DNA of 64,000 nt from the NCBI GenBank assembly GCA_965247095.1, contig OZ251997.1, positions 736,001 to 800,000 on the forward strand. The letters run 5' to 3'. Positions within the stretch are counted from its first letter, which is position 1. Each line of letters starts with the position of its first letter. The stretch comes from Candidatus Multivorans sp. (GTDB lineage: Bacteria; Acidobacteriota; Thermoanaerobaculia; Multivoradales; Multivoraceae). The notes beneath the pieces are model-generated. The model was not told the origin of the DNA. It saw only the letters and a list, made by a program, of their open reading frames with translations, and made no database searches. Position numbers and translations under genes: made by a program. This document shows, piece by piece, positions 50,983 through 64,000 of the stretch.

Positions 50983-51663
50983 CTAGCCGCTGACGCGGAA
51001 CGAGCGGGCGACGCGGAAGCCGGTGTCGTCGGCCGCGAAGCCGGTGTCGTCGGCCGCGAAGTCGGCGGATTCGCGCTTCCGGAGGCGGTAGTGGAGTTCG
51101 CACGCCTCGGTACGGAACGAGCCGCCGCAGAGCGTTCGGCGGCGTTCGTCGCCGTCCGCGCCGGAGGCGACCCATTCCCACACGCTGCCCAACATGCCGT
51201 GGAGACCGAAGCCGTTCGCGCCCCTGCGTTCGGGCGGTTGGACAACCCCGTCCGAGTTGCCGGCGTGCCAGCAACGTCGGTCGATCGATTCCGGCGTGGC
51301 GTTCCATGGGGGAACCTCGTCGGCCGCGGAACCGCCGCGGCAGGCATAGCGCCACTCGACTTCGGTCGGCAGCCGCATGGGTTTGCGCGAGACCTCCGCG
51401 TACCACAGGCAGTAGGCGTCGGCCTGCCGCCAGCTCACTCCCGCGGCGAGGTCGCGATCGCCCGCTGACAGCGGTGATCGCTGGTAGCCGGGATCGAAGG
51501 CCTCGAACTGCTCGTTCGTCACCGGCCACTTGCTGAGGTAGAAGGGGTCGACCGCAACCACCCGGCCGCCCACCCGGATCTCGCCACCCGGGATCAACCA
51601 CAGGATGGTGCGCGGAACGTGGGCGTAGGAGCGGGGCAGCGGTCGGCGCGCGGTGCTGGCCAC
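50983..51663 (-). CDS. Formylglycine-generating enzyme-like (SUMF1/NirV) domain protein
   Basis: PVTNEQF, VSW..A..YC.W, RLPTE.EW.YA, N.FGL..M.G.VWEW, GGSF, GFRVA. Confidence 0.88.
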   Translation of the reverse strand: MASTARRPLPRSYAHVPRTILWLIPGGEIRVGGRVVAVDPFYLSKWPVTNEQFEAFDPGYQRSPLSAGDRDLAAGVSWRQADAYCLWYAEVSRKPMRLPTEVEWRYACRGGSAADEVPPWNATPESIDRRCWHAGNSDGVVQPPERRGANGFGLHGMLGSVWEWVASGADGDERRRTLCGGSFRTEACELHYRLRKRESADFAADDTGFAADDTGFRVARSFRVSG

Positions 51664-51783
51664 GGGCTAGGAGGCTGCGCCGCACAACGACACAAAGTGA
51701 GTTGTGCGGTGCAGCGTCATAGTGAGGTGGGGGCTAAGGGCCAAACACGGAGTCTGCGACGGGTTTGGCGGCTCTACCGGAAG

Positions 51784-53151
51784 TCAGGAGGGTCGGCCGA
51801 ACACCTTGGGCGTCGGCATCCGGGCGCGGATTGCGTCGAGTTCCTCGACCGTCACGGTCGAAATGCCGCTCTTCAGGCAGTGGGATTCCACCGAGCGGAC
51901 GACCATGCCGCGAACGAAGGCCGGCACCCGCTTCATCCGCGCTTCCGCCTCGGGCGCCCAGGCGATGCTGGTGGAGGTGTTCTCGCCGTAGCGGGAAAGG
52001 GACGCGAGCCCGGTTCGGTCCCCGAACGCCGCGAGTTGTTCTGGCGAGAAGGAACCGGGGTCGTGGGTGCACAGCGGATCTTCCGCCATCAGGTCGCCGG
52101 TCATGCCGTAGGCGCGGGCGCGGCAGCCACCGCAGACCGACTGCAGCTCGCAGGAACCGCAGCGTCCGCCGAGGTCCTTGCGGCGCCGGATGTCCTGGAA
52201 CAGGTCGGAGTCGTTCCAGACCGCGGACAGCGTCGAGCGCTTCAGGTTGCCGCCGAAGACGGGCAGGTAGGGGCACGGCGTGACATCGCCGTTCGGGCGG
52301 ATCCCCATGTAGTGGGTGCCGGCCGGGCAGCCGCCGGCGCCGCCGTCGAAGGCCTTGAGGAAGGGCGAGTCGGGATCGCCGGACAGCAGTTGACGAACGT
52401 AGTGCGGCGCGCACTTCGCGTTGACCACCATGCGGCCGCGGTAGTTGCGCTGAATCTGTTCCAGGGAGGCGAGGACCTCGTCGTAGTCGGACGGCGAGAG
52501 ATCGGACACGAACTGGCCGCGACCCGTGGGCACCAGGAAGTAGAGGTTCCAGACCCGGGCCTGGAGTTCGGTATAGGCGAACTCGGCGATCTCCTCCAGT
52601 TCCCCGAGGTTGTGTGCCCCGGCGGTGGTCTGGATGATGAAGGGAAGACCGGCTGCGGCCAGGTGCCGGGCGCCGTCGACCGTGTTCTGCCAGGCGCCGC
52701 GGACGCGGCGGAAGCCGTCGTGGACCGCCGGGTCCAGCGCGTCCAGCGACAGGGCGAGACCGCGGACTCCTTCGCCGGCCAGGATGCGGGCCAGGTTCTC
52801 GGTGATCCGGACGCCGTTGCTGCCGACCACGACCCACAGATCGCGCTCGGCGGCGTAGCGGACGATGTCGAGGATGTCGCGCCGCAGCAGCGGCTCGCCG
52901 CCTGTGAGGATGACCAGGGCCTCGGGCGCGAACTCGCAGATGTCGTCGATCACCTTCCGGCACTGGTCGGTGGAGAGTTCCGAGCGGTCGGCGAAGTTGG
53001 CGGTCTCGACCAGCGGCTTGCCGCCGGCGTCGAGGTAGCAGTGCTCGCAGGCCAGGTTGCAGCGGTAGGTCAGATTCCAGGAGATCACGTAGGGGCGGGC
53101 GAACGCCGTCGGCGTGGCGCTGGTCGGCCGTTCGAGGGGTGACAGGGTCAT
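51784..53151 (-). CDS. Radical SAM/SPASM enzyme (NirJ/AhbD-like) with C-terminal PCP_red-like domain
   Basis: WNLT..CNLACEHC, TGGEPLLR.D, LVPTGRG, CPAG...G.V.PC...C..C...CGGCRARA...EDPLC; tail W.PEAE.R..RVP.FVR. Confidence 0.88.
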   Translation of the reverse strand: MTLSPLERPTSATPTAFARPYVISWNLTYRCNLACEHCYLDAGGKPLVETANFADRSELSTDQCRKVIDDICEFAPEALVILTGGEPLLRRDILDIVRYAAERDLWVVVGSNGVRITENLARILAGEGVRGLALSLDALDPAVHDGFRRVRGAWQNTVDGARHLAAAGLPFIIQTTAGAHNLGELEEIAEFAYTELQARVWNLYFLVPTGRGQFVSDLSPSDYDEVLASLEQIQRNYRGRMVVNAKCAPHYVRQLLSGDPDSPFLKAFDGGAGGCPAGTHYMGIRPNGDVTPCPYLPVFGGNLKRSTLSAVWNDSDLFQDIRRRKDLGGRCGSCELQSVCGGCRARAYGMTGDLMAEDPLCTHDPGSFSPEQLAAFGDRTGLASLSRYGENTSTSIAWAPEAEARMKRVPAFVRGMVVRSVESHCLKSGISTVTVEELDAIRARMPTPKVFGRPS

Positions 53152-53175
53152 GGCGAGAGCCTGGTGCGAACCCGA

Positions 53176-53652
53176 TCAGGCGATGCCGAAGAAGGAGCGG
53201 GCGCGCTCCAGCACGCCCGCGTCGACCTCGTCGTAGCCATGGTCGAGAGCGAACTTCTCGATTCCGGCGACCGCCGAAGTGCGCACGATGTCGGGGATGT
53301 TCGCCAGCCGTTCGCGGGCCTCGGCGGTCCAGGGGATGCCTCCCGATTCACCGTTGCCGGTAACGCTTGGGCTGCCAACTTCGTCTTCGGACTGGGTAGT
53401 CGGCATGCCCATCTCGGCCAGCATGCCGGTAAAGGGACACTTCGAGGATGTCGCCCCGGCCTCCGTGCCGGTCTCGGGGCCGATCCGCACGCCGAGGGCG
53501 CCGACCACCTGGGTCTCGTGGGGATTGGTCATCATCGCCATCTCGGCAGAGCAGGTGGGACAGGCATAGACCAGGGCGACGGAACCGCCATCGGGGCCCA
53601 GGGCGTGCTTCAGCTTCATCTGCTCGTCGCAGGGTACGCAGAGGAATTTCAT
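53176..53652 (-). CDS. Small Cys-rich protein (CxxC/CxxC, CPF) with PCP_red-like domain
   Basis: MKFLCVPCD...CPTC...NP.ETQ.V, KCPF, WT.EA..RL..IP..VR......IE..A...G; AAGGA RBS. Confidence 0.8.
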   Translation of the reverse strand: MKFLCVPCDEQMKLKHALGPDGGSVALVYACPTCSAEMAMMTNPHETQVVGALGVRIGPETGTEAGATSSKCPFTGMLAEMGMPTTQSEDEVGSPSVTGNGESGGIPWTAEARERLANIPDIVRTSAVAGIEKFALDHGYDEVDAGVLERARSFFGIA

Positions 53653-53674
53653 CCTTGGTCTCAGTCGGCGGAAA

Positions 53675-54547
53675 TCAGGTCGTCTTGGCGAGGCAGTTCA
53701 GGATCGAAGCCGCGGCCTCGTCGATCGCGCGGAGGACCGGTCCTGGGGCCAAGTCCGCTTCACCGGCATCGGAGGCCGCAGCCAGTCGCGGGTCGAACGG
53801 TACCTTAGCCAGGCAGGGGAGTCCAAGCGCGGGCGCTTCGCCGGCCGCGCCATCGAACAGGGGGCGGACCCCGTCGCAGGTTCCGCAGTAGTAGCCGCTC
53901 ATGTTTTCGATGTACCCGAGCACCTCGTTCGGCGTCGTGCCGAGCGCCGCCGCCGAGCGCGCAACGACCCCGCGTGCCAGCGCGGCAGGAATCGTGACGA
54001 GCACGAAGCGCGCGGCCGGTCCAAGGACCTCGGCGTACTGCAGGGTACGCTCGGCGCCGGGCGGCAGGTCGACCAGGAGAAAATCGAGACGACCCCAGTC
54101 CACCAGGCCGAGCAACTGCTGGAACAGGTTGAACTCGCGGGTTGCGCGCCAGACGTGGGAGTCGCCCTTCGCGACGCTCTCGAACTCGAGGTGCTCCGAT
54201 TCGGGCACCATGGAGCCCACCGACACCACTCCGAGGCCATGAGGCGTGCGGGGCAGGGCCATGCCCCGATCGCCAGGCAGCAGCGGAACGTGTTCCAGTC
54301 CGGCCAGCCGGGCCTGGCAGGGTCCGTTCAGGTCGGCATCGAGGATCGCGCATTGGAGTCCCGCGCGCCCGAGCGCCAGAGCGAGCTGCATGGTCAGGGT
54401 GCTCTTGCCGACGCCTCCCTTGCCCGAACCGATGGCGACCACATGGTCGATGCCGGCCGTGGCCTCGGCGATGCGCTCCCGCTGCTGGAGAACCTGCCCG
54501 AGAACGTCGGAACCGCCGTCTCCGGCGACGTCGAAGTAGGTCCTCAT
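53675..54547 (-). CDS. Mrp/NBP35 (ApbC) P-loop ATPase, Fe-S carrier
   Basis: SGKGGVGKST, LDADLNGP, W..LD.L.VDLPPG, ENMS.Y.C..C, PFDP. Confidence 0.88.
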   Translation of the reverse strand: MRTYFDVAGDGGSDVLGQVLQQRERIAEATAGIDHVVAIGSGKGGVGKSTLTMQLALALGRAGLQCAILDADLNGPCQARLAGLEHVPLLPGDRGMALPRTPHGLGVVSVGSMVPESEHLEFESVAKGDSHVWRATREFNLFQQLLGLVDWGRLDFLLVDLPPGAERTLQYAEVLGPAARFVLVTIPAALARGVVARSAAALGTTPNEVLGYIENMSGYYCGTCDGVRPLFDGAAGEAPALGLPCLAKVPFDPRLAAASDAGEADLAPGPVLRAIDEAAASILNCLAKTT

Positions 54548-55392
54548 GGCCGGCGGACGCGGTCGAGAAGGCCGGTTCGTCTCGCCAAAGAGCTTGCCTC
54601 GGCGCGCAGCCGCCCACGGAGGTCGAGTTCCGGAAAGGCGGCGCGCTGAAAGATGAGCCCATCGTTCACGATCCAGGGGCGGCTGCGACCGAAGGCGTGA
54701 CGATGTCTCTTCATGTAGACGAGTTCGAAACCGTTCTTCGCAAGCAGGCCGACCAGCTCCAGAGGACGGATACCAAACTGCCAGTACCAATGGTTGTCCC
54801 GCTCCAGCCGTCCGTCCTCGTCGCGGTGGTCATGCTTGTCAAACCACGCCTCCAGCCTGGCGCGCGTGTTCCAATGGTCTTCCCAAACGTAGACATTCTT
54901 GTAGTACCAGTCCAGGCCGCGATCGACAAACCGTATGGTCCGTGCAGTCTTCAACCAGTTCTGATTGAAGACAATCAGAACGTCGGTATGCGGCAGCCAG
55001 TTCAGCAGGAACCTGTCCCAGTCCGGCTTGACCTGATGCAGCAGGATGTCGTACATGATGAGGGCATCGACCTCACCTACCGCGTCGAGCGCCTGCTGTG
55101 AGCCGAGCATCGCCTCGACGAGCTCCACTCTGGGATGTTCCTTCGCGCGCTCCTGGGTCAGAGGAGTCAGGTTGCCGTCGACGATCACCGCTCTCCCGAG
55201 CTCGTTTCCGCAGAGTTCGGCGGCGTGGAACGTGTAGGCGCCGTCGACGCCCCAGCAGGCGCCAAGGTCGGCGAAGGACCGGAAGTCGGTGAGCTCGTAG
55301 GCCGTCTCGAGCAGCTCGAGTTTCTCCGGTTTTGGCTGAACCTCGGACTGCGCTCCGACTGGCATTTCTTCGGAGCTGAGGCGGGCGAACAT
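54544..55392 (-). CDS. Hypothetical protein, possible class I SAM methyltransferase fold
   Basis: ADLGACWG motif I-like, D...YD.LLH; stop overlaps the mrp start; more AT-rich than neighbours. Confidence 0.55.
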   Translation of the reverse strand: MFARLSSEEMPVGAQSEVQPKPEKLELLETAYELTDFRSFADLGACWGVDGAYTFHAAELCGNELGRAVIVDGNLTPLTQERAKEHPRVELVEAMLGSQQALDAVGEVDALIMYDILLHQVKPDWDRFLLNWLPHTDVLIVFNQNWLKTARTIRFVDRGLDWYYKNVYVWEDHWNTRARLEAWFDKHDHRDEDGRLERDNHWYWQFGIRPLELVGLLAKNGFELVYMKRHRHAFGRSRPWIVNDGLIFQRAAFPELDLRGRLRAEASSLARRTGLLDRVRRP

Positions 55393-55428
55393 GGGGGCAG
55401 CCTAACAGGGGGAGGCGACGCTAGCTGG

Positions 55429-56358
55429 TCACGACCGAGCGGCGTCACTTTCGTATCGAAGGGTCTTCCGCGCCGCCTGGAAGCCGCAGTCTTCGAGCCG
55501 ATCCGCCAGTGGTTCGCGGCGGTGCACCCGCGGCAGGTAGAGCGGTCGTTTGCAATCGTTGGCGGCGAAGGCGAGGAGCGGCCCAAGAAGAGCCGGCACC
55601 GGCCGCTTGCCGCCGATCGCGAGGATCTCGCAGGGTGTGGAGCCGGCGGGCAGGCCGGCGGCCGATCTGGAAACCGGCGGCCGGGCGATGAACGGCAGGG
55701 GGTCGTCGGCGTCCTGGGCGCTTCGATAGAGGAGATAGGCCTCGAAGCCGCGGTCGGTGGCGATGCCGACGCCCAGTGCTCGCTCGCGCAGGTTGCGGAT
55801 CGTCTGGGCGGAGCGCTGCCAGCAACGATTCAGTTCCGAGGCATCGGCGAACTCGGCACTGGCTGTGATCTCCGACGGGGCAACAGTCCCGACCAGGTCG
55901 AGGAAGGGGCCGGCCGCGGGCCTCGCGGACTGCTGGATGTAGTCGATGAGGGTTTCTGCTTCGGCGAAACCGCAGGCCCTGAGGAAACGGTGGGCGGCAA
56001 CGGCCTCCGCCGGGACTTCGACGAGCATGCGGGTCGGCTCGAGGATCGCCATCTTCTGGCTGAGCGAAGTCATCATGTGGCGGGCATGGCCCTGCCGGCG
56101 GTGGTCCGGGTGGACCGCAACGTGGAGCACGAGGCTGGCCGTGGGCTCTCGCTTCGCCGCGATCAGCACGCCGATCGGGTCGCTGCCCGCGAACGCGACC
56201 ATGCAACTGCTGGTCCAGAGGTTGATCTCCCTGGAGAGCCGCTTCATGTGGTCGACTGTGAGCCGCCACGGGACGGCGCCGGGTCCCACGTTGCAGCGGT
56301 GGAACGCCTCGACGATCAGGGGCACGTCGTCAGAGCGGCAGAAGCGGTACGCAGGCAC
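55429..56358 (-). CDS. GNAT family N-acetyltransferase
   Basis: VAVHPDHRRQGHA acetyl-CoA binding motif, LEV...A..F...CGF-like segment; start uncertain. Confidence 0.75.
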   Translation of the reverse strand: MPAYRFCRSDDVPLIVEAFHRCNVGPGAVPWRLTVDHMKRLSREINLWTSSCMVAFAGSDPIGVLIAAKREPTASLVLHVAVHPDHRRQGHARHMMTSLSQKMAILEPTRMLVEVPAEAVAAHRFLRACGFAEAETLIDYIQQSARPAAGPFLDLVGTVAPSEITASAEFADASELNRCWQRSAQTIRNLRERALGVGIATDRGFEAYLLYRSAQDADDPLPFIARPPVSRSAAGLPAGSTPCEILAIGGKRPVPALLGPLLAFAANDCKRPLYLPRVHRREPLADRLEDCGFQAARKTLRYESDAARS

Positions 56359-56362
56359 CGGC

Positions 56363-57733
56363 CTACTCGGTCCGCGGGCCGGCAGGCGCCCCAAGCGCGG
56401 CCGGAGCGGGGGGCGCGCCGGTCGGCGCCTGCTCCGGCAGGCGCAGCAGCGCGAGGATCAGCATGGCGGAAACGTACATGGAGATGAAGACGGTGAAGGC
56501 GAGGTCGTAGCTCCCGAAGCGGTCGAAGACGTACCCCGCGAAGGGTACGCCGAGGATCTGGATCGGCAGAAGCATCGGGCTCATCAGACCCATGACCCGG
56601 CCGAACGATCGCCGTCCGAAGCAGGCGCCGATCAGCGTCCCCCAGAGGGGCATCATCCCGCCCATGCCGAGTCCGAAAACCGCCGCGGCGCCGATCAAGG
56701 CCGGGTAACTCTCGGCCCGGAGCAGGGCCGTTGTGCCGGTGGTCTGCAGACCGATCGCCAGCCACAACGCGCCGCGGCTGCTCAAACGATCGCCGATCCA
56801 ACCGAACACGACCTTGCCCAGCACGCCCATCGCGGCGATGGCGGAGAGGCTGAAAGCGGCCCGGATCGGTGCGAAACCCAGGTCCGTGGCGTGGGCGATG
56901 ATGTGGGTGAGAATCGCCGAGTTGGAGCAGAAGTTCATCGACACCACCAGGGCGATGACCCAGAAGTTGCGGTTGGCGAGGGGCTCGACCCAGTCGAGGC
57001 GCCGGCGCCTCGGCGGCGCGCCGGCGAACGTCGGGGCCGGCGCGACCGGTTCGACTCCGGCCGGGCCTTCACCCGGGGCAGGGGTCGGGGTCCATTCCGG
57101 CGCCATGGAGGTCGCGTCTCCGTCGGGGTGCAGGCCGATGTCCTCCGGCCGGTCGACGACCCAGCGGCGCACCGCCGGCAGCACGAACAGCAGGGTCAGC
57201 GCGCCGTAGAGCACGAACGTGCCACGCCAGCCGATCAGCCCGATCAGCCGGGTGGCGACGGGCGCCATGACGACGCCGGACAGGGAGATGCCCATCGTGG
57301 CTATGCCCAGAGCCATGGAGCGCCGGCGAACGAACCAATTGGCGACCAGGGTCGACGCGGTCACGCCTCCGACCAGGGCGGCCCCCAGGGCCAGGAAGGT
57401 GCCGAGGACGAGGTAGAACTGGACCAGGTTCTGGACCGTGGCGGTCAGCAGGAGTCCGGTCGCCAGCAGCCAGACGCCGGCCGTCATCGTCCGCTTGGCG
57501 TGGCCGTGGTCCAGGGCGTGCCCCAGGAAGGGCGCGACCAGGCCGTTGGTGATGCCGAAGACGGCGAGGCCGATGCCGACGCCCGTTCGCCCGCCGCCGA
57601 ACTCGGCTGTCAGGGCGACGAAGAAGACGCCGAAGGAGTAGAAGCCGAAGCCGACCGAGACGAAGAGCGACAGGAAGCAGACGCCGATGATCTTCCAGCC
57701 GTGGAAGACCGCGCTGGCGGGAGGGGGCCGCAA
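56363..57733 (-). CDS. MFS transporter (OFA/monocarboxylate-like)
   Basis: FHGW.I, NWF.RRR..ALGI, P...GL.PDG, GWIGDR, FG...FG...G, 12 TM pattern. Confidence 0.88.
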   Translation of the reverse strand: MRPPPASAVFHGWKIIGVCFLSLFVSVGFGFYSFGVFFVALTAEFGGGRTGVGIGLAVFGITNGLVAPFLGHALDHGHAKRTMTAGVWLLATGLLLTATVQNLVQFYLVLGTFLALGAALVGGVTASTLVANWFVRRRSMALGIATMGISLSGVVMAPVATRLIGLIGWRGTFVLYGALTLLFVLPAVRRWVVDRPEDIGLHPDGDATSMAPEWTPTPAPGEGPAGVEPVAPAPTFAGAPPRRRRLDWVEPLANRNFWVIALVVSMNFCSNSAILTHIIAHATDLGFAPIRAAFSLSAIAAMGVLGKVVFGWIGDRLSSRGALWLAIGLQTTGTTALLRAESYPALIGAAAVFGLGMGGMMPLWGTLIGACFGRRSFGRVMGLMSPMLLPIQILGVPFAGYVFDRFGSYDLAFTVFISMYVSAMLILALLRLPEQAPTGAPPAPAALGAPAGPRTE

Positions 57734-57767
57734 GCTGCTAAGCCAGCAGGTCGTCCAGCCTGAGAAC

Positions 57768-59933
57768 TCAGGCTTCCGGTTCGCCGGCCTTGCGCTTCTC
57801 GTCGAGTGCCGACATCAGGCCGACCTCGTTCAGGTACGTGCCGGCCTTCGCGTCCTTGGCCGCCTCGACCTGTGCCTTGCTCGCGCCGGCTTCGGCGAGA
57901 GCGGAGAAGGGACACCGTCCGGCGGCTGTCGCGGCCTTCGTCTCGGCATCGGCGACCTCGGTCGCCTGGGTCCCTTCGCCCTTGCCGATCTCGTAGGCCG
58001 CGATCATCTGCTCCATCAGTTCGTGGCCCAGTTCGATGCCCTCTTCGACGGTCTTGATCCCGATCCGCGAGATGTGCTTCTCGCGGGCCACCAGCTCGAC
58101 GCGCTCCTGGGTCCGGTCCCGCATGAAGCCGGCGGGCACCCGGAGAATGCGGGAGGTGGCGTCGGCCGTCCACTCGTAGCTCGAGAGCAGCGGCACCCGA
58201 TCGCCGTCGCGGGCGATCAGCTTCCGCTCGTCGGATGCCGCTTCGGTGGCGCCGTTGTCGTTCGTTGCGGCCGCCTGCTCACGGGCCTCGATCGTCACCG
58301 GCTCGCCGGTCTCGTCCTCGATCTGCGCGCGGGCGAACTCGAAGGTGACGGTCGGCAGCTTGCTCATCCGCGCCTTCTTCTCGATCCGGGCCTTGGCGCG
58401 ACGGCGCCGGTACAGGTCCTCGATCGTCTTGAGGGCCAGACGGGCGTCCGCGGTCCACTTCAGCTTGCGGCCGTCGTAGGTCATCTCGACTTCCAGACCG
58501 CCTTCCATCTCGGCGATCCGTTCGAGCATCTCCTCGGTGATCTGCTCGAAGGACTTAGCTCCGCAGACGCCGCAGCGGACCGGATCCGGCTCGGCCGAGG
58601 TCACGCCGCACTTGCGGCAGATGAAGGTGGGCCGGCTGCGCGCGAGCTGCAGGCCGACCTGCTCGGCCAGCGCCTCCGTCTCGCGAGCGGTGTACTTGGG
58701 CATGTAGCGGTCCATCGCCTCGTCCAGCACGTCGCTCGAGATCACGCTGTGGCCCTGCTCGACCGCCAGCCGGTAGAGCGCGGTGCGGGCGATGCCGCGC
58801 ACCTGCTCGGGGACGCGCTTGAAACGCTCCTCGGCCTCGGGCGTCCAGCGGATGCTCTCCTCGGCCTTCACGTCGAGTTCCGGGTACTCGAGACGCGTGG
58901 TCAGCAGGAGGTCGCAGGGGCAGGAGCGGAGAAGGTTCTCGGCGTTGCTGCCGAGGCCGGTCTCGTTCTCGTCGCTGTGGACGCCGATGCGGCCGATGAC
59001 CAACATCCAGGGATCGATCTTGCGGGCGTGGTCGAGGACCTTCTGGAACGCTTTGCCGTCGAGCAGGGTCTTCGTCAACTCGACCCCGACCTCGGTCGCC
59101 ATCGTCTCGGCGACGTCCAGGTGGGACTGGTAGATCTGCGCCAGGCCGGTATCGATGATCTCTTCGTGGAGCTGGTTCTGCTCCTCGAAGCGGAAGACCT
59201 TCGCGGCCCGCTCGGTCAGCACGTTGACCACGCCCTTGAACACCGAGTAGTGCAGGTACGGGTCGTAGACCGAGATCGCCTCGACCTTCTTGCCGAACCG
59301 CTCGGCCAGGTCGATGGCGGTCATCAGAGCGCCGAAGGACTGGGGCGAGCCGTCGACGCCGACCAGGATCGTGTCGCGGCCGTCGGCCTCGGCTTCTGCG
59401 TGGTTGCCGTTGCCGTTGCCGTTGCTCCCCGAAACTCGGGCCGGCAGGCGCTTGATCACCAGCACGTCCTTGTCGGCGCTGCGGGCCACCCGCTCGCAGA
59501 CCGAGCCGATCTGCGTGTCGCGGACGCGGCCGATGCCCATCACGCCGAGCACCGTCAGGTCGTAGCCGGACTCGCGGATGTCGCGCACGATCTCGACGTG
59601 GTGCTTGCCGTCCATCATCTTCGGCTCGAACTCGAGGTCGGCTTCGTCGCAGACGGCCTTCATCGGCTCGAGGTAGCTCTCCGAGATGAGCTCCAGCCCC
59701 ATCGTGATCAGGGAGTCGTGGATCTTCCGCTGGCGGTCGAGTTCCGTCTCCTCGAGGTACTCCTCGGGCAGCGTGTACTCCATCTGCTTGAAGCGGTAGT
59801 CGTGCATGCTCGCCGCGTAGACGTGGCAGCCGACCATCCTGGAGTCGAACTTCCGGCCCAGTTCGACCGCGGAGGCGATTGCCTGGTTGGAGTAGTCCGA
59901 GTTGTCGAGCGGGACGTAGATCGTCTTGTACAT
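57768..59933 (-). CDS. Multidomain universal stress protein: 2x USP + 3x PCP_red-like + rubredoxin-like CxxC/CxxC + CPF
   Basis: MYKTIYVPLDNS and ILVGVDGS USP starts, IGSVCERV / LGSNAENL; three WT.(E/D)A repeats; CRKCG...CGVCG; RCPF. Confidence 0.85.
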   Translation of the reverse strand: MYKTIYVPLDNSDYSNQAIASAVELGRKFDSRMVGCHVYAASMHDYRFKQMEYTLPEEYLEETELDRQRKIHDSLITMGLELISESYLEPMKAVCDEADLEFEPKMMDGKHHVEIVRDIRESGYDLTVLGVMGIGRVRDTQIGSVCERVARSADKDVLVIKRLPARVSGSNGNGNGNHAEAEADGRDTILVGVDGSPQSFGALMTAIDLAERFGKKVEAISVYDPYLHYSVFKGVVNVLTERAAKVFRFEEQNQLHEEIIDTGLAQIYQSHLDVAETMATEVGVELTKTLLDGKAFQKVLDHARKIDPWMLVIGRIGVHSDENETGLGSNAENLLRSCPCDLLLTTRLEYPELDVKAEESIRWTPEAEERFKRVPEQVRGIARTALYRLAVEQGHSVISSDVLDEAMDRYMPKYTARETEALAEQVGLQLARSRPTFICRKCGVTSAEPDPVRCGVCGAKSFEQITEEMLERIAEMEGGLEVEMTYDGRKLKWTADARLALKTIEDLYRRRRAKARIEKKARMSKLPTVTFEFARAQIEDETGEPVTIEAREQAAATNDNGATEAASDERKLIARDGDRVPLLSSYEWTADATSRILRVPAGFMRDRTQERVELVAREKHISRIGIKTVEEGIELGHELMEQMIAAYEIGKGEGTQATEVADAETKAATAAGRCPFSALAEAGASKAQVEAAKDAKAGTYLNEVGLMSALDEKRKAGEPEA

Positions 59934-60004
59934 GGGGTTTCTCTTCTTTTGACGGAGTGTCGGTTCCGAGAGAGGAGGCTATCGATGCCTGAATGGGGCT
60001 GCGG

Positions 60005-61816
60005 TCAGACGGCGGGGGCCTCGGTACCCGCGAGGGCGGTCTCCTCGCCGGCCGATGCCTGGTTCGCGCGGCGGCGGACCAGGAACACGACGAGCAATTC
60101 GATCACGAGCACGATGAAGGCGGCGCGCAGCACCGGGATGGTCGCTGCCTGCTTCACGGTGGGTTCGGTGTAGACGTAGAACCAGGACGACACGGCGCGC
60201 TTGTTGCCGCGTTCCCGGTTGAAACCGTCCCAGACGCTGAAGGCGATCGGCGTGTACTGCTGCTCGGCGAAGCTGACGCCGGCGCGTGACGCGCGGCGGC
60301 GCCTATAAGTCACGGTCCACTCGCCCTGGTCGTAGGAGGTCACGGCCTCGACGATATCCGCCTCGGTCGGCTCGACCGCGTCGCTGCCGCGGCCCCGGAA
60401 GGTGTCCGCAACGCCATAGGTCAGGTTGACGAACCAGAGGTCGACCGGGTTCGAGCTGTCGCCGAACAGGAAGTACGGCTTGAGCTGGGGCGTCTTCTCG
60501 GGCGCGAGCGAGGCCGGGAACTGGAGCGCCACCGCATCCGAGAACTCGGCGCCGTCGCCGCCGGTATCGCCGCCACCGCCGAAGAAGTCGTCGTCCGTGC
60601 CGAAGAAGTCGTCGGCGCTGTCGTCGACGGTCTCGACGCCGAAGAACCCGGCATCGTCCTCGGGCGCCACCTCTTCGATGCCGAAGAAGCCTGCGTCGTC
60701 CTCGGGCTCCTCCTCGACGCCGAAGAAGCCGCCGTCTTCGCCTCCGTCACTGTCTCCCGAGTCGATGTCGTTGTCCTCGTCCCACATCGGTACGTCCAGC
60801 GAGGGGTTGTTCCTGCCGGTGTTGTCGGCGCGCAGGTCGTTCCAGCGCACCCGGAAGGCGATCTCGCCGCGGTTGTAGACGGCCTGAGCCTCGATCGAGG
60901 TCACGGACGGATAGAAGTTGCGACCCGGTTCGGTGATCTGGCCGACCAGGGGGAAGCGGGTCATCGGCGCGGTCTCGAACAGGGCGTCGAGCGCTTCCGC
61001 GTCCTGCAGGTCGATCGCCTCCTCGGTCCATGCGGCGGTGATCAGGGTGCCGTAGCCGGGGTCGTCGCCGTCGCCCAGGGAGTACACGTAGTTCACCAGG
61101 TGCTGCCGGTCCTCTTCTTCCAGCGAGTCGGCGTACGACGGCATCGGGGTGCCGTTCAGCCCGGTGGAGAAGGTGCGGTAGATGTCCTCCTTGGTCGCGC
61201 CGCCGCGGAAGGTCCAGCGCTGGGTCAGATCGGCGGCCTTGATCAGGTCGTTCTTGTCGTTGACCAGGGTCGGCGCCGAGTTTCCGTCGCCGCGGCCGAC
61301 CTCGCCGTGACAGGCGGCGCAGCCCTGCTCCTCGTACAGCAGCCGGCCGCGGGCGATGGACTCCTCGGTCGACTCGAGCGGCCGGGGGATGTCGATGGGC
61401 TCGCCGTAGCGGTCGGGATTCTCGAAGTCGGGCGAGAAGGACTTGATGTAGTAGATGACGTTCTGGACCTCCGCGTTCGTCAGGTCCGGCCAGCCCGGCA
61501 TCGACGTGTAGGGGAGGCCGGTCTCGATCACGCGGCGCAGGTCGTCGTCCGTGGGAAGCATCCCGTTCGGCGTGGCGCGGAACTTGTACTTGCCGGACGT
61601 GAAGTCGCGCGGCTTGGGCTTGACGCGCAGGGTGGCGTAACCGTTGCCGTCGCCGGCATCGCCGTGGCACTGGCCGCAGTACGTGTCGTAGACCACCTTG
61701 CCGGCCGCCCGCTGTTCCTCGGCGCCGAGGTCGACCTGGGCGGCCAGGGGCGCGACCAGCAGGACGGCGCCGACCCCTACGGCCGGTACGGACGCGAGAA
61801 TGTGACGCACGGACAT
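60005..61816 (-). CDS. Diheme cytochrome c fused to a DOMON-like (ethylbenzene dehydrogenase gamma-type) heme domain, C-terminal TM anchor
   Basis: Signal peptide, CGQCH..G.G.G..PRDFT.G.YKFR, CAACH, GT.MP, F...W.D, SDAVA.QFP, G.W.V...R, AF.VWDG...ERG.K. Confidence 0.85.
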   Translation of the reverse strand: MSVRHILASVPAVGVGAVLLVAPLAAQVDLGAEEQRAAGKVVYDTYCGQCHGDAGDGNGYATLRVKPKPRDFTSGKYKFRATPNGMLPTDDDLRRVIETGLPYTSMPGWPDLTNAEVQNVIYYIKSFSPDFENPDRYGEPIDIPRPLESTEESIARGRLLYEEQGCAACHGEVGRGDGNSAPTLVNDKNDLIKAADLTQRWTFRGGATKEDIYRTFSTGLNGTPMPSYADSLEEEDRQHLVNYVYSLGDGDDPGYGTLITAAWTEEAIDLQDAEALDALFETAPMTRFPLVGQITEPGRNFYPSVTSIEAQAVYNRGEIAFRVRWNDLRADNTGRNNPSLDVPMWDEDNDIDSGDSDGGEDGGFFGVEEEPEDDAGFFGIEEVAPEDDAGFFGVETVDDSADDFFGTDDDFFGGGGDTGGDGAEFSDAVALQFPASLAPEKTPQLKPYFLFGDSSNPVDLWFVNLTYGVADTFRGRGSDAVEPTEADIVEAVTSYDQGEWTVTYRRRRASRAGVSFAEQQYTPIAFSVWDGFNRERGNKRAVSSWFYVYTEPTVKQAATIPVLRAAFIVLVIELLVVFLVRRRANQASAGEETALAGTEAPAV

Positions 61817-62634
61817 CAGTGCTGCCCCAGAGCGCGCGGCTCGTAGCCGTTGAAGTCGTAGATGAACAGGTTGACGTCCCACATCTCCTCGGTGGTGAGA
61901 AACTTCTCCCACGCCGGCATGGCGCTGTCCCAGGGGGTGCCCGCCGCAGGCAGACCGGGTCCGCCCATGGCGATCCGCCAGTGGACGAAGGAGGACTGCA
62001 GGATCGGCAGCGTGCCGACATCGTTGAAGTTGCTGGGCGCCGGGTTCAGGCCGTGGGCGAACATGCCGTCGCCGCCCATGCCGTCGCCGTGGCACCAGAA
62101 GCAGTTCTCGTAGTAGACGCGACGGCCGTTCTCCAGGTGCTCCTCGTACGCCTCCGGGTCGTCTTCGTGAAGGTGGGTGTACGGGTTGTCGGCGGTCGCC
62201 ATGTCGATCGTCTCGTCGTGGACCGTGATCTCCGTTGGCGGCGCCGGATGCACCTCGCGCCCGAATCCGGGCGCCTCGAGCGGTACGTTCATGTCCGCGT
62301 AGACGTTGTAGGCGGCCAGGGCGGGCAGCGCCACGAGTACCGCGGCCAGAAGCGGCCGGCGCCGTGGTTCAAGGATGAGCCGCTTGATCGGTACTGTGGT
62401 CTCGGACAGGCGCTCGCGGCTCGACGAGGCGTAGCAGACCAGAGCGAGCGTCGCGATCCCCAGGTAGATCGTCGCCACCGACTGCGGGATCGGTACGGCG
62501 AAGCCGAACTTGAAGAAGGCCCAGAGCGCGATCCAACTGAAGAGCAGCCAGGCGAGTGTGTTGGCCCGGCGCCAGGCCAGCACGCCGGCGACCGCGGCCA
62601 GGGCAAGAAGAACCGGTAGGTTGAGTCCCATCAT
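61816..62634 (-). CDS. Membrane-anchored monoheme cytochrome c
   Basis: N-terminal TM helices, R..HPAPP, ENCFWCHGD..G.G, WRI..GGPGLP...PW.SAMPAWE. Confidence 0.88.
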   Translation of the reverse strand: MMGLNLPVLLALAAVAGVLAWRRANTLAWLLFSWIALWAFFKFGFAVPIPQSVATIYLGIATLALVCYASSSRERLSETTVPIKRLILEPRRRPLLAAVLVALPALAAYNVYADMNVPLEAPGFGREVHPAPPTEITVHDETIDMATADNPYTHLHEDDPEAYEEHLENGRRVYYENCFWCHGDGMGGDGMFAHGLNPAPSNFNDVGTLPILQSSFVHWRIAMGGPGLPAAGTPWDSAMPAWEKFLTTEEMWDVNLFIYDFNGYEPRALGQH

Positions 62635-62665
62635 GATTGAGTCGGTTCCGTGAAGGTTCGGGGGC

Positions 62666-63151
62666 TCAGTAGCCGAGTTCGGCGTCCAGGGTCACGGACG
62701 GCGTTCCGCCCAGGCTCTGCAGCCAAGCGATCACGGCCTTGATTTCGTCATCGGAGAGATTGATCGGCGGCTCATTCATCGGCTGCATCCCGTCCTCGTA
62801 TCCGGGAACGACGAACTTCCCCGGTTCGTAGAGAGACTGCGCCAGATACTCGACATCGGACAGCCCCTCGATTCGCGTCGCCGCGCGCTGTCCGATACCA
62901 CCCAGATCCGGATAGCGGCTTGGTCCGCTGGAACCGATCTGGTGGCAGGCGGCGAGGCATTGACCCTTGCCGTTGGCCAGCTCGTTGCCGACCTCGATGA
63001 GATCCTCGGTCGTCATGTCGGCGTCGATCAGCACCGGCGGCGGAGGGTGTACTTCCTTCTGGGGCACGATCTGGCCCAGGTACATGTAGAAGGCCGTGGT
63101 GCCCAACACCAGGAGGACCATCTTGAGCGGCATCGGGACGTTCAGCTTCAT
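62666..63151 (-). CDS. Membrane-anchored cytochrome c with CxxxCH motif
   Basis: TM, VPQ....PP, GKGQCLAACH, R.PDL, EYL..SL..P..FVV.GY...M, EI.AVIA.LQS.GG. Confidence 0.85.
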   Translation of the reverse strand: MKLNVPMPLKMVLLVLGTTAFYMYLGQIVPQKEVHPPPPVLIDADMTTEDLIEVGNELANGKGQCLAACHQIGSSGPSRYPDLGGIGQRAATRIEGLSDVEYLAQSLYEPGKFVVPGYEDGMQPMNEPPINLSDDEIKAVIAWLQSLGGTPSVTLDAELGY

Positions 63152-64000
63152 GCCGTCCGCCCCTCCTTGAGCCGGCCGTCGGCTTCAGTGGCGGTCTTCG
63201 GCTGCCAGGGCTTCTTGCCGGCGAGGCTGCTGAGCCAGAAGACGACGCCGAGCAGGCCGAAGAAGATGAGAACGGTGACGGAGACAACCCGGGTGGCGAA
63301 GCCCAGGCTCGGAGTGTATGCCTCCGGAGAGGTGTCGAGGACCACGCCGTACACGTGCCACTCCTGTCGCAGGCCGGAGCGGACGTAGCCCATCAGGCCC
63401 ATCAGCCAGGTGAAGCTCAGCGCGATGAAGATCAGCGCGTACTGCGAGATCGCGGGCATCTTGCCCCATTGCGTCTCGCCGGGCCGCCTGGCGTTCCGGT
63501 ACAGAGGCAGGTCGATGATGGTGATCACGGCCATCGCCGCGAGCACCGAGTAGACCTGGGGTATTGCGAATCGGACTCGCATCGCGGCGTCGACGGTCTG
63601 GTGGTAGCCGTAGACGCCGAAGAAGATGACCAGCGCGGCGGTAGCGGCGAAGACCACCACCTGGGCGCGGCTCAGGAGCTGCCTCCGCGGGTGAATCGAC
63701 TGCTTGCCGGTTCGCCGGTAGAGCAGGAAGCTCATGTAGGTCGACAGGATGAGGATGTTGACCGCCGTGTTCTTGGCCGACATCTGACCCAGATAGGAGA
63801 GCTGCGGGTGGCTGCTGCCGCCCATCGCGGCGATCTCGGAAACGGACGAGATCGCATAGCGAGGCGTTGCCCAGACGGCGAAACAGAGGGCGATCGCGAT
63901 CAGCAGCCACTTGATGAACTTCTGAAAGTGGGCTGTGCCCTCGATCCGACCCATCCCCAGCCACAGGTAGTAGTTCGCGCCCAGGAACAGGTTGCCGATC
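63148..64000 (-). CDS. Cytochrome bd-like oxidase subunit I-related membrane protein (3' part; runs off the window end)
   Basis: Frame stays open to 64000 (IGNLFLGANYYLWLGM...), G.MSAKNTAVN, WLMGLMGYVRSGLRQEWHVYG resembling the CydA C-terminal GRQPW region. Confidence 0.7.
   Translation of the reverse strand, partial: IGNLFLGANYYLWLGMGRIEGTAHFQKFIKWLLIAIALCFAVWATPRYAISSVSEIAAMGGSSHPQLSYLGQMSAKNTAVNILILSTYMSFLLYRRTGKQSIHPRRQLLSRAQVVVFAATAALVIFFGVYGYHQTVDAAMRVRFAIPQVYSVLAAMAVITIIDLPLYRNARRPGETQWGKMPAISQYALIFIALSFTWLMGLMGYVRSGLRQEWHVYGVVLDTSPEAYTPSLGFATRVVSVTVLIFFGLLGVVFWLSSLAGKKPWQPKTATEADGRLKEGRTA

Follow-up and report, generated by a model that had tools for sequence, protein, structure and literature searches.

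We analysed a window, that is, the whole 64,000-nucleotide stretch of DNA, and Pfam searches together with an ORF check identified twelve gene products on the minus strand between positions 50983 and 64000 (Table 1). The original prediction had described a co-directional minus-strand run with stop/start overlaps, and both features were confirmed: all twelve named products were found in place, and four-base overlaps occur at 63148/63151, 61816/61819 and 54544/54547. The genes up to 64000 are real, but the operon is longer, and the cluster as then outlined makes up only its distal end. Reading the sequence past 64000, which had been proposed as a check, revealed upstream the rest of the bd-like gene, followed by genes for a cytochrome c, a molybdopterin-like/Fe-S ActB-like protein and an ActA-like protein. 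The region is best explained as the distal end of a single respiratory gene cluster together with cytoplasmic helper genes. The respiratory part, located in periplasm and membrane, comprises the ActA-like and ActB-like proteins, three monohaem cytochromes c, a dihaem cytochrome c-EB_dh and the bd-like subunit. The helper genes fall into two modules. One, a protein with two USP and three PCP_red domains plus a GNAT, stays with the oxidase genes in the split clusters examined, and the other, an Mrp ATPase, CysPCP and an AhbD-type radical SAM-PCP_red protein, lies elsewhere in the genome in some clusters. USP-PCP_red, GNAT, Mrp, CysPCP and the radical SAM protein form the conserved core, and the MFS, hyp282 and FGE-like genes are variable.

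Table 1. Features of the gene cluster, listed from the upstream end
Feature	Position	Strand	Remarks
ActA-like (ActA/QrcA-like) pentahaem cytochrome c	outside window, upstream of 64000	minus	
ActB-like protein	outside window, upstream of 64000	minus	1135 aa; Fe-S / molybdopterin-like
Cytochrome bd-like membrane subunit, C-terminal 283 codons	63148..64000	minus	full ORF 645 aa, to window-equivalent 65085
Monohaem cytochrome c, membrane-anchored, 161 aa	62666..63151	minus	Cytochrom_C 5.4e-07; one TM segment
Monohaem cytochrome c, polytopic, 272 aa, CFWCH	61816..62634	minus	Cytochrome_CBB3 6.9e-07
Dihaem cytochrome c-EB_dh (DOMON-like), C-terminal anchor, ~604 aa	60005..61819	minus	Pfam
USP-PCP_red: cytoplasmic tandem-USP, three PCP_red domains, CxxC...CxxC ribbon, 721 aa	57768..59933	minus	
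MFS transporter, 456 aa, variable passenger	56363..57733	minus	MFS_1 1e-43
GNAT acetyltransferase, 321 aa, uncharacterised C-terminal half	55429..56394	minus	Acetyltransf_7/_1; core
Hypothetical (hyp282), 282 aa, variable	54544..55392	minus	without family
Mrp/NBP35/NUBPL-type P-loop ATPase, ~290 aa	53675..54547	minus	ParA/NUBPL 1.2e-49; core; true start probably 54547
CysPCP, 158 aa, four-Cys ribbon, Cys-Pro-Phe, C-terminal PCP_red	53176..53652	minus	PCP_red 8.3e-12; core
Radical SAM/SPASM, AhbD/NirJ clade, C-terminal PCP_red, 455 aa	51784..53151	minus	Pfam; core
FGE-sulfatase-domain protein, 226 aa	50983..51663	minus	FGE-sulfatase 1.2e-28; peripheral, recurrent, not core

The full bd-like ORF matched the Pfam family Cyt_bd_oxida_I (6.8e-26, profile positions 2-240 of 418), the only such match in the genome; the fragment within the window (63148-63999) gave no Pfam match by itself. 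A crude hydropathy scan indicated at least 12 transmembrane segments, and H98 and E185 aligned with H21 and E108 of Geobacillus CydA. Because no quinol loop could be aligned and a motif scan found no CxxCH, the subunit resembles the OR-N family. The 161-aa cytochrome c, which has orthologues next to the bd-like gene in two more phylum-level samples, carries CLAACH (CX3CH) at residue 65. The CxxxCH motif reported earlier is thus real in the window protein, but of the 21 sequences aligned only two carry it, those of the window and L030, and CxxCH stands in the remaining 19. The 272-aa cytochrome c has four hydrophobic segments, and its position in the gene order is kept across distant clusters. 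The dihaem protein matched Cytochrom_C (3.7e-21, two stretches) and EB_dh (1.2e-13), contains CGQCH and CAACH, and hit the NCBIfam model DMSO_red_II_gam below cut-off (2.9e-21); its 696-aa ORF over-extends, and the length in Table 1 follows from the likely start. Pfam and NCBIfam searches showed that the ActB-like protein is a fused QrcB/QrcC-like protein with Fe-S domains and a TAT-type N-terminus. All NCBIfam scores of the Act-like proteins were below cut-off, save that of the TAT-variant domain TIGR04519, and a Pfam search of the window and upstream genes found no NrfD-type ActC.

Among the helper proteins, USP-PCP_red matched Usp (5.1e-38) and PCP_red (3.5e-21 over three stretches), gave an AlphaFold model with a pLDDT of 72, and is encoded near bd-like/cytochrome genes in distant clusters. 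GNAT orthologues with 32-43% identity, conserved from residue 16 onward, are encoded between the USP-PCP_red and Mrp genes in distant Acidobacteriota and also in G408, from a second phylum-level sample. The best NCBIfam models for Mrp were MrpORP and ApbC, both below cut-off. Across 19 sequences, conservation reaches 90% or more both in its Walker A motif GKGGVGKS and at C221-x2-C224, and its gene is directly upstream of CysPCP in most loci. In CysPCP, C5, C8, C31, C34, C72-P73-F74 and the PCP_red residues are invariant in 18 sequences, and its PCP_red part aligns with the last 60 residues of ChlB/BchB and with the stand-alone proteins 2L09 and 2KRU. The radical SAM protein matched Radical_SAM (3.8e-23), SPASM (3e-10) and PCP_red (1.6e-11) in Pfam, and AhbD (290.9 bits, cut-off 500), NirJ2 (280.4) and TIGR04053 (266.1) in NCBIfam; its predicted structure has a pLDDT of 83. 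Its invariant cysteines are C31/C35/C38 and C331, C334, C340, C343 and C361, and the latter form CX2CX5CX2CX17C, which is given as the AhbD auxiliary-cluster motif in the available part of PMC10114771. The genome encodes five PCP_red domains, all inside the cluster, and in the own-phylum sample the domain was detected nowhere but in the 22 cluster genomes and one 569-aa ORF of G160. To our knowledge, PCP_red is found elsewhere only at the C-terminus of BchB/ChlB, a tetrapyrrole-reducing enzyme subunit, and in stand-alone proteins without known function.

The MFS, hypothetical and FGE-like proteins had also been assigned to the maturation set, an assignment that was not upheld, since all three lie outside the conserved set, with MFS and the hypothetical protein missing from distant clusters. 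MFS was matched in most loci with a radical SAM protein of 87% identity or more, and in no locus under that value. Hyp282, which has no Pfam or NCBIfam match, was matched in 21 of 57 loci, every one with a radical SAM protein at least 88% identical. The FGE-like gene adjoins the radical SAM gene in relatives with at least 87% identity and is missing from most distant clusters, among the distant versions of the own phylum being matched only in G022; FGE-family genes occur near the module in G022 and G511.

The co-inheritance of these genes was assessed in three phylum-level sets totalling 523 genomes (301 from the own phylum, 121 from the phylum of G302 and 101 from the phylum of G301). A bd-like orthologue was present in 35 of the 523 and radical SAM-PCP_red in 34, all within the 35. 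The accessory genes therefore track the bd-like gene, as the original prediction had required (34/35 versus 0/488 genomes), in counts that include kin, and so are not independent, and that draw on two outside samples supplied without completeness figures. Within the own phylum, bd-like, radical SAM-PCP_red and USP-PCP_red genes occurred in the identical 22 of 301 genomes (20/299 without the unpublished genomes G049 and G152). A full-length CysPCP profile match was obtained in 19 of these 22, a partial one in one more, and none in non-cluster genomes. The next-best radical SAM matches in this phylum were at most 40% identical and stopped before the PCP_red part. In the phylum of G302, radical SAM-PCP_red was found in 6/121 genomes and bd-like in 7/121, with six in common, and in the phylum of G301 both were found in the same six of 101, one radical SAM gene being split. 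The bd-like-bearing genome G364, represented by a 9.3-kb contig with fragmentary matches, yielded no radical SAM protein at E <= 1e-80.

Distribution within families is patchy (f13, 2/4; f14, 1/15; f15, 1/2), and the cluster is therefore not one clade. The bd-like and radical SAM genes also co-occur when unlinked, at distances of 1.30 Mb (G457), 0.97 Mb (G486) and 0.58 Mb (G304), or on separate contigs (G256, G124, G022, G325 and G417). The order bd-like, cytochrome c, cytochrome c, c2-EB_dh, USP-PCP_red, GNAT, Mrp, CysPCP, radical SAM is kept at 42-72% identity in Vicinamibacterales and Thermoanaerobaculia loci, and G408 has the same genes with the radical SAM gene on the opposite strand. These data establish which genes and domains the module contains, that their order is conserved and that they are co-inherited; we found no description of the module in the literature.

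The host is a soil-type acidobacterium. Its genome encodes HemA, C/D, L, E, Y, H and F, the HemF gene adjoining that of HemH. No ChdC and no AhbA/B-type domain were found in the genome; HemW scored above cut-off, a HemN-like paralogue was sub-threshold, and no further members of that group were found there. Across the own phylum, ChdC is distributed independently of the cluster, with strong matches in 5 of the 22 cluster genomes.

Since the helper genes are found only alongside the bd-like enzyme, they probably supply its haem. On balance, we slightly favour the view that they form a dedicated cytoplasmic line that would finish haem and hand it over to an OR-N-like bd-type complex, with the haem chemistry suggested by family resemblance. 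The radical SAM enzyme may act on the propionate side chains of an iron tetrapyrrole by radical chemistry of the AhbD type, and the PCP_red domains may be shared tetrapyrrole-binding or partner-docking modules. CysPCP could hold haem transiently through its invariant Cys-Pro-Phe, Mrp could load or gate Fe-S clusters, and USP-PCP_red and GNAT might connect the membrane complex to the delivery. Each step of this hand-over is proposed here, as are the substrate, the product and the binding. The earlier idea of a maturation system was thus sound in linking the downstream genes to the bd-like/cytochrome c genes, as their co-occurrence indicates, but its "special" cofactor found no support as worded. 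Transcript contigs from two RNA-library runs of one study, 90-99% identical over parts of radical SAM, the CysPCP-Mrp junction, hyp282, USP-PCP_red, ActB and ActA, lend the favoured reading weak support. Several observations count against it: the radical SAM protein scores below every curated NCBIfam cut-off, and its fold is closest to generic SPASM enzymes, mostly peptide or protein modifiers (PqqE, SuiB, SkfB, CteB-type and anSME). Moreover, alignment of the EB_dh part revealed no invariant Met, Lys or His as haem b ligand, and neither the variable inserts nor the surroundings of unlinked radical SAM genes show a recurring tetrapyrrole-pathway gene. In the available part of a DPOR review, the named substrate-binding residues lie upstream of the PCP_red part.

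The radical SAM protein could instead be a general O2-independent haem b synthase, working with docking partners as a coprohaem decarboxylase of the AhbD type. It would then make ordinary haem b when O2 is scarce and be co-selected with a low-O2 oxidase rather than dedicated to it. AhbD is indeed its best family, with an identical auxiliary Cys motif. HemF is O2-dependent, and the host's own route runs via HemF, with no ChdC and just HemW and the sub-threshold HemN-like paralogue; in G298, moreover, a ChdC gene lies ~5 kb from the radical SAM gene. However, a general synthase would not be expected to track one oxidase, yet all 34 genomes with radical SAM-PCP_red have bd-like and none of the 488 without bd-like has it. 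AhbD-like matches without PCP_red occur in 61 other Acidobacteriota genomes, five cluster genomes have a strong ChdC too, and the host genome, with its HemF and HemH genes side by side, shows no evident coprohaem route. We consider this explanation unlikely. The related objection that the protein is simply the genome's ordinary AhbD was tested and does not hold, given the lack of an AhbA/B-type domain, the presence of HemE/F/Y/H and the bd-like-bound distribution.

The solved folds closest to the radical SAM protein, together with its eight-Cys SPASM region, would also suit a protein-modifying maturase acting on Cys in the Cys-Pro-Phe of CysPCP, in the CP-bearing tails of USP-PCP_red or in one of the complex's subunits, with PCP_red serving recognition or docking. 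CPF is invariant amid variable linkers and CP motifs occur in some USP-PCP_red tails, but CPF is missing from most of them. The SPASM enzyme anSME has its aerobic counterpart in FGE, and FGE-family genes lie near the module in three lineages. Profiles nevertheless favour AhbD/NirJ2 (E ~1e-86) over peptide maturases (1e-41 or weaker), and in the low-GC sample the radical SAM protein is on its own, fused to three PCP_red domains and lacking a CysPCP gene beside it. We regard this account as improbable. Still less probable is a set of regulatory or assembly helpers without haem chemistry, in which USP-PCP_red and GNAT form a nucleotide-sensing/acetylation switch, Mrp supplies Fe-S clusters to the ActB-like protein and the radical SAM protein is unrelated. 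USP1 does carry a nucleotide-binding-type motif (G-2x-G-9x-GS, with G130 and G143 invariant), the USP and GNAT genes usually adjoin, a mycobacterial USP is acetylated by a GNAT, and the ActB-like protein has Fe-S domains and a TAT-type N-terminus. In split clusters (L036, L043, L046 and G256), however, Mrp goes with CysPCP and radical SAM, not with ActB, and G408 has Mrp yet no ActA or ActB match in its 27.6-kb contig. This account also leaves the perfect co-occurrence of the radical SAM protein itself unexplained.

Compared with known systems, the radical SAM protein shares CX3CX2C, the auxiliary motif CX2CX5CX2CX17C and its best NCBIfam families with AhbD (TIGR04545) and NirJ/NirJ2. It differs in its extra PCP_red domain, its score (290.9 bits against a cut-off of 500), a genome without an AhbA/B-type domain, and its co-inheritance with a bd-like oxidase gene rather than a sirohaem pathway. 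The PCP_red domain is the same as the BchB/ChlB C-terminal domain, 2L09 and 2KRU (E 3.4e-09 to 2.8e-06 against PDB chains), but the cluster proteins lack the nitrogenase-like catalytic part and fuse PCP_red to USP, a Cys ribbon or radical SAM; a Pfam PCP_red search found no BchB in the genome. Mrp resembles the Mrp/ApbC/NBP35/NUBPL carriers (PF10609, 169 bits; deviant Walker A; conserved CxxC), but falls below the ApbC and MrpORP cut-offs and is usually directly upstream of CysPCP. The cluster recalls alternative complex III (ActABCDEF)/Qrc in its pentahaem ActA/QrcA-like protein and in the QrcB/QrcC-like fusion, whose N-terminus is of the TAT-variant type, but it has a bd-like subunit in place of the NrfD-type membrane subunit.

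The OR-N-type bd-like "terminal oxidase" of Nitrospirota (Murali, Gennis and Hemp, 10.1101/2021.01.16.426971; Ca. Manganitrophaceae, PMC9040806; Nitrospirales, PMC12342949) is alike: in the available portions of these sources, cytochromes c, a periplasmic protein of the cytochrome b type and components resembling ACIII are encoded alongside a CydA-superfamily subunit that has neither a quinol site nor a c-haem motif. The likeness carries no subfamily placement. The same portions mention no accessory radical SAM, PCP_red, USP or Mrp genes, and the present cluster differs in having ActA/ActB-like genes without NrfD-type ActC and in its acidobacterial host. HemW, described in the available part of PMC10114771 as a radical SAM family haem chaperone that delivers haem b into NarI, belongs to the HemN fold family, not SPASM, and the genome has its own HemW above cut-off. 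It is nevertheless likewise a cytoplasmic radical SAM family protein serving a membrane respiratory haem protein and, as far as that part of the source describes it, provides a precedent for dedicated hand-over.

The original prediction listed a minus-strand run of respiratory and accessory genes between 50983 and 64000, and Pfam and NCBIfam searches bore out each product. The host genome consists of a single contig of 4.62 Mb with about 68% GC and is 98.96% complete. Past the window end, upstream of the bd-like gene, we found genes for a cytochrome c, an ActB/QrcBC-like Fe-S protein (1135 aa) whose N-terminus is of the TAT-variant type, and an ActA/QrcA-like cytochrome with five haems. Because the respiratory genes continue beyond the window, the run from 50983 to 64000 represents the distal two-thirds of a 16-gene, one-strand cluster. 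A promoter and terminator scan of this 68% GC DNA returned 0 promoter-like and 2 terminator-like sites, below the counts in shuffled sequence, and is uninformative at such a GC content. Short RNA-library contigs of a close relative, all from one study, cover helper and respiratory genes, which hints weakly at expression; coverage was missing from two X2 bins and three X1 bins, which is not evidence of silence.

Genes of the cluster within the window (positions beyond 64000 are window-equivalent)
Product	Position	Strand	Support
FGE-like protein	50983-51663	minus	PF03781, 100.9 bits
Radical SAM/SPASM protein with C-terminal PCP_red, 455 aa (rSAM)	51784-53151	minus	Pfam, NCBIfam
Cys-rich PCP_red protein, 158 aa (CysPCP)	53176-53652	minus	Pfam
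Mrp/NUBPL ATPase		minus	PF10609, 169.4 bits
Hypothetical protein, 282 aa	54544-55392	minus	No family (Pfam, NCBIfam)
GNAT		minus	Pfam
MFS transporter		minus	Pfam
USP-PCP_red, 721 aa, two USP and three PCP_red domains	57768-59933	minus	PF00582, 131 bits, 2 stretches
Dihaem cytochrome c fused to EB_dh domain		minus	Pfam
Monohaem cytochromes c (two)		minus	Pfam
bd-like subunit, C-terminal part inside window	63148-65085	minus	Whole 645-aa ORF against cytochrome bd subunit I, 6.8e-26

A plus-strand SCO1/SenC gene and genes for a 393-aa cytochrome c and a NosD-like beta-helix protein lie upstream of ActA (fetched stretch L002:6837-10043, window-equivalent 70837-74043), a trio that suggests copper handling. 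They were ruled out as parts of the system, since none had a match in any distant locus.

To assess whether the accessory genes are inherited with the bd-like gene, we performed a presence/absence search of 301 genomes of Acidobacteriota, 121 of the phylum of genome G302 and 101 of the phylum of genome G301. A bd-like orthologue was present in 22 of the 301 acidobacterial genomes (20 of 299 without the unpublished G049 and G152), and rSAM with its PCP_red part was present in exactly those 22; the next-best rSAM matches reached at most 40% identity and ended before the PCP_red part. USP-PCP_red occurred in the identical 22 genomes. The CysPCP profile matched over its whole length in 19 of these genomes and partially in one, and elsewhere its sole hit was the end of a G160 ORF of 569 aa. 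These 22 genomes fall into 16 genera and are patchy inside families (2 of 4 in f13, 1 of 15 in f14 and 1 of 2 in f15). The G160 site (G160:C1:1875171-1875350), the only PCP_red match among the 301 genomes outside the 22, served as an internal positive control; the ORF is probably BchB, as expected of a phototroph.

Within the phylum of G302, rSAM-PCP_red was found in 6 and the bd-like gene in 7 of 121 genomes, with both in 6; the seventh bd-like genome, G364, gave fragmentary matches only, on a 9.3-kb contig. Both genes were found in the same 6 of 101 genomes of the phylum of G301, one rSAM gene being split. No bd-like match was found in G305, a genome of unknown completeness. Pooled, rSAM-PCP_red was present in 34 of 35 bd-like genomes versus 0 of 488 others, counts that span related, non-independent genomes and two outside samples of unstated completeness; the co-occurrence that the original prediction expected in other genomes was therefore found. 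The distance between the rSAM and bd-like genes is 1.30 Mb in G457, 0.97 Mb in G486 and 0.58 Mb in G304, and in several further genomes the two are on separate contigs, indicating that their co-occurrence is not mere physical linkage. This co-inheritance makes a functional tie between the helpers and the bd-like complex very likely.

Gene order was compared across 57 loci and 33 stretches retrieved from further genomes. The usual order was ActA, ActB, cytochrome c, bd-like, cytochrome c, cytochrome c, dihaem cytochrome c-EB_dh, USP-PCP_red, GNAT, Mrp, CysPCP and rSAM; more divergent versions were without ActA and ActB. Where clusters were split, USP-PCP_red and GNAT remained with the oxidase genes, and Mrp, CysPCP and rSAM moved as a group (G256 and loci L036, L043 and L046). 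In the low-GC sample, rSAM stood isolated among unrelated genes and USP-PCP_red was still near the bd-like genes. The MFS gene was restricted to loci with rSAM at least 76% identical and the 282-aa hypothetical gene to those at least 88% identical, and the FGE-like gene adjoined rSAM only where identity reached at least 87%. The genes inserted between the modules were unrelated ones, namely transporters, kinases and transposases, with haem-copper oxidase genes in two genomes, and no recurring tetrapyrrole genes were found among them.

Several loci had features of their own. FGE-sulfatase-family genes occurred near the module in three lineages: in the window, beside cluster genes in G022 (L078:17397-17990), and 3.5 kb upstream of rSAM in G511 (L099:4722-5738); most other versions were without one. 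The cluster regions of G005 and G282 (L067:2173-6088 and L068:9747-13589) contained COX2, COX3, COX1 and a CarboxypepD_reg protein, and G005 additionally had an NrfD-type gene at L067:11769-13217 together with another radical SAM/SPASM gene of shorter length (L067:8637-9737). The low-GC rSAM proteins, 644-679 aa long, bore three fused PCP_red domains (L096:9449-11380, L099:9253-11289 and L097:7793-9692), and in G486 the gene was divided in two, the radical SAM portion being 294 aa and the PCP_red portion 347 aa. Contig G129:C1 carried a second rSAM-PCP_red copy (L074:8763-10495, 63% identity) alongside a CysPCP whose N-terminus diverges, far from the bd-like cluster and adjoining genes for an IS91-type transposase and a 1586-aa subtilase. 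A strong ChdC gene lay about 5 kb from rSAM-PCP_red in G298 (G298:C47:75257-75826), and in G208 a weak Chlor_dismutase-family match (G208:C17:42170-42625) was located roughly 5 kb past ActA.

The bd-like protein scored 91.2 bits against PF01654 (gathering score 26.2), covering only profile positions 2-240 of 418. It was the sole Cyt_bd_oxida_I match in the whole genome, which also encodes one haem-copper oxidase. Alignment with Geobacillus CydA (5DOQ) placed H98 at H21 and E185 at E108. Among 19 orthologues, E185 was invariant and H98 was conserved in at least 90%. These residues correspond to the helix-1 His and the second proton-channel Glu, H19 and E107 of E. coli CydA. In the pairwise alignment with CydA, Y178 occupied the E101 position of the first channel Glu (E99/E101). 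Alignments to solved CydA chains ended near residue 243 and took in only the first four or five helices, leaving the Q-loop with its haem b558 ligands unaligned; these features would fit, though they do not prove, a form lacking a quinol site. A crude scan showed at least 12 hydrophobic segments, and no CxxCH was found in the protein. An NrfD-type quinol-binding subunit (ActC/ActF) had no match among the 16 cluster genes.

Two of the accompanying cytochromes showed unusual features. The 161-aa cytochrome c (62666-63151) has a CX3CH motif, CLAACH in the window and CLIGCH in locus L030, in place of the CxxCH found in 19 of 21 aligned orthologues, and several distant orthologues are longer with a second haem motif. 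The dihaem cytochrome c-EB_dh protein has a strongly acidic insert at residues ~395-455 (window ~60450-60640, minus strand), with repeated DDAGFFG(V/I)E and DDFFG units, between its cytochrome c domains and the Pfam-matched EB_dh part.

Among the helpers, rSAM had AhbD, NirJ2 and TIGR04053 as its best NCBIfam families and scored 290.9 bits against AhbD (TIGR04545), below the cut-off of 500. Its cysteines C31/C35/C38 (CX3CX2C) and C331/C334/C340/C343/C361 (CX2CX5CX2CX17C) were invariant in 35 sequences. We define rSAM-PCP_red as a distinct clade within the AhbD/NirJ radical SAM group. The cluster accounts for all five PCP_red domains in the genome; three exceeded 32.5 bits against PF08369 and two were weaker, and the whole-protein scores of the three proteins were all above cut-off. 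A profile search of solved structures matched PCP_red only to BchB/ChlB and a pair of stand-alone proteins without known function, with the CysPCP domain aligning to the final 60 residues of ChlB/BchB as well as to the stand-alone pair. CysPCP also has an invariant four-Cys ribbon and, within variable linkers, an invariant C72-P73-F74 (n = 18), which presumably recalls the haem-regulatory motif (CP plus a hydrophobic residue, with thiolate haem binding) and is taken as a lead only.

The Mrp protein conserved a deviant Walker A (GKGGVGKS) and the cluster-bridging CxxC (C221-x2-C224) in at least 90% of sequences and fell below the ApbC and MrpORP equivalog cut-offs. The G130-xx-G133-x9-G143-S144 of USP-PCP_red (model pLDDT 72), read from its sequence, corresponds to G-2x-G-9x-G(S/T), the motif of ATP-binding universal stress proteins. 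The FGE-like protein, inspected by eye, seems to have a single Cys after GGSF; formylglycine-generating enzymes have a catalytic Cys pair after GGS. The ESM Atlas returned, as a lead only, 230-260-aa proteins joining a rubredoxin-type domain (RUBY_RBDX) to PCP_red (scores 0.81-0.88), mostly from Nitrospirota and Nitrospinota, phyla with known bd-like oxidases.

We next considered what the helpers might do. One explanation, a rival that we keep in view, is that rSAM is a general anaerobic haem synthase, as its AhbD-type motifs would allow. The genome encodes HemA, HemL, HemC/D, HemE, HemY, HemH and HemF, with HemW above cut-off, and the AhbA/B-type domain (PF17805) had 0 matches in this 98.96% complete genome, which rules out rSAM as its ordinary AhbD, the outcome that would have undone the original prediction. 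A role as ChdC replacement was likewise ruled out: a profile search found ChdC absent from this genome, and its distribution across the phylum (96 of 301 genomes, five of the 22 genomes with the cluster showing strong matches) is independent of the cluster.

Another explanation is a protein maturase. Foldseek with the rSAM model (pLDDT 83) returned SPASM enzymes in general, with no AhbD or NirJ entry among the listed matches, so the fold leaves the substrate class unsettled. A predicted complex of rSAM-PCP_red (with SAM and three 4Fe-4S clusters) and CysPCP scored 0.00, the partner fold being uncertain, and was uninformative both ways. The set might also comprise regulatory or Fe-S helpers, as the Mrp and universal stress protein domains bring to mind. 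The haem reading is preferred because the AhbD-type motifs of rSAM, the BchB/ChlB domain PCP_red and the Cys-Pro motif converge. The helpers would then serve the bd-like complex specifically, completing its haem and passing it on, a reading that we rate only slightly above an even chance. A bolder version, in which the AhbD-like rSAM makes a side-chain-modified haem (haem d-like or new), not haem b, as the OR-N active-site cofactor and the PCP_red proteins carry it, seems to us unlikely.

Nitrospira-type nitrite oxidisers and Mn-oxidising Nitrospirota are presumed to use bd-like (OR-N) complexes as their terminal oxidases. Our results place bd-like complexes in Acidobacteriota and two other phylum-level groups. 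A helper set found in our samples only in bd-like genomes, even when encoded some 1 Mb or farther away, offers a concrete handle on the haem of the complex: rSAM, the putative carriers and the putative Fe-S loader are open to expression and assay, and the haem can be compared with and without them. If the rubredoxin-PCP_red proteins share the system, the modified-haem version would also have consequences for the terminal oxidases of nitrite and Mn oxidisers. We know of no earlier functional context for PCP_red outside chlorophyll synthesis. Our search for literature linking "bd-like" with "radical SAM" found none, the supplement of the bd-superfamily preprint, with possible operon drawings, lying outside it; titles and opening lines of abstracts on PCP_red/PF08369 held nothing on such a module, nor was one described in the portions covered of the AhbD, cytochrome bd and NirJ literature.

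Compared with known systems, rSAM shares with AhbD both CX3CX2C and the auxiliary motif CX2CX5CX2CX17C, the latter quoted for AhbD in a review (PMC10114771), but differs in its score under the cut-off and the absent AhbA/B context. The OR-N family of bd-like oxidases, as defined in the preprint by Murali, Gennis and Hemp (10.1101/2021.01.16.426971), shares with our protein a subunit without c-haem motif, at least 12 segments falling within its range of 10-14 TM, and electron-transfer genes in the operon, here cytochromes c, EB_dh and ActAB-like proteins. The bd-like protein would thus be in keeping with the OR-N family. The ActA-like (5 CxxCH) and ActB-like genes are held in common with alternative complex III. 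Finally, the acidobacterial cluster resembles in gene content the Nitrospirota "terminal oxidase" clusters, in which genome analyses describe bd-like proteins with periplasmic cytochrome b or ACIII-like parts (PMC9040806, PMC12342949).
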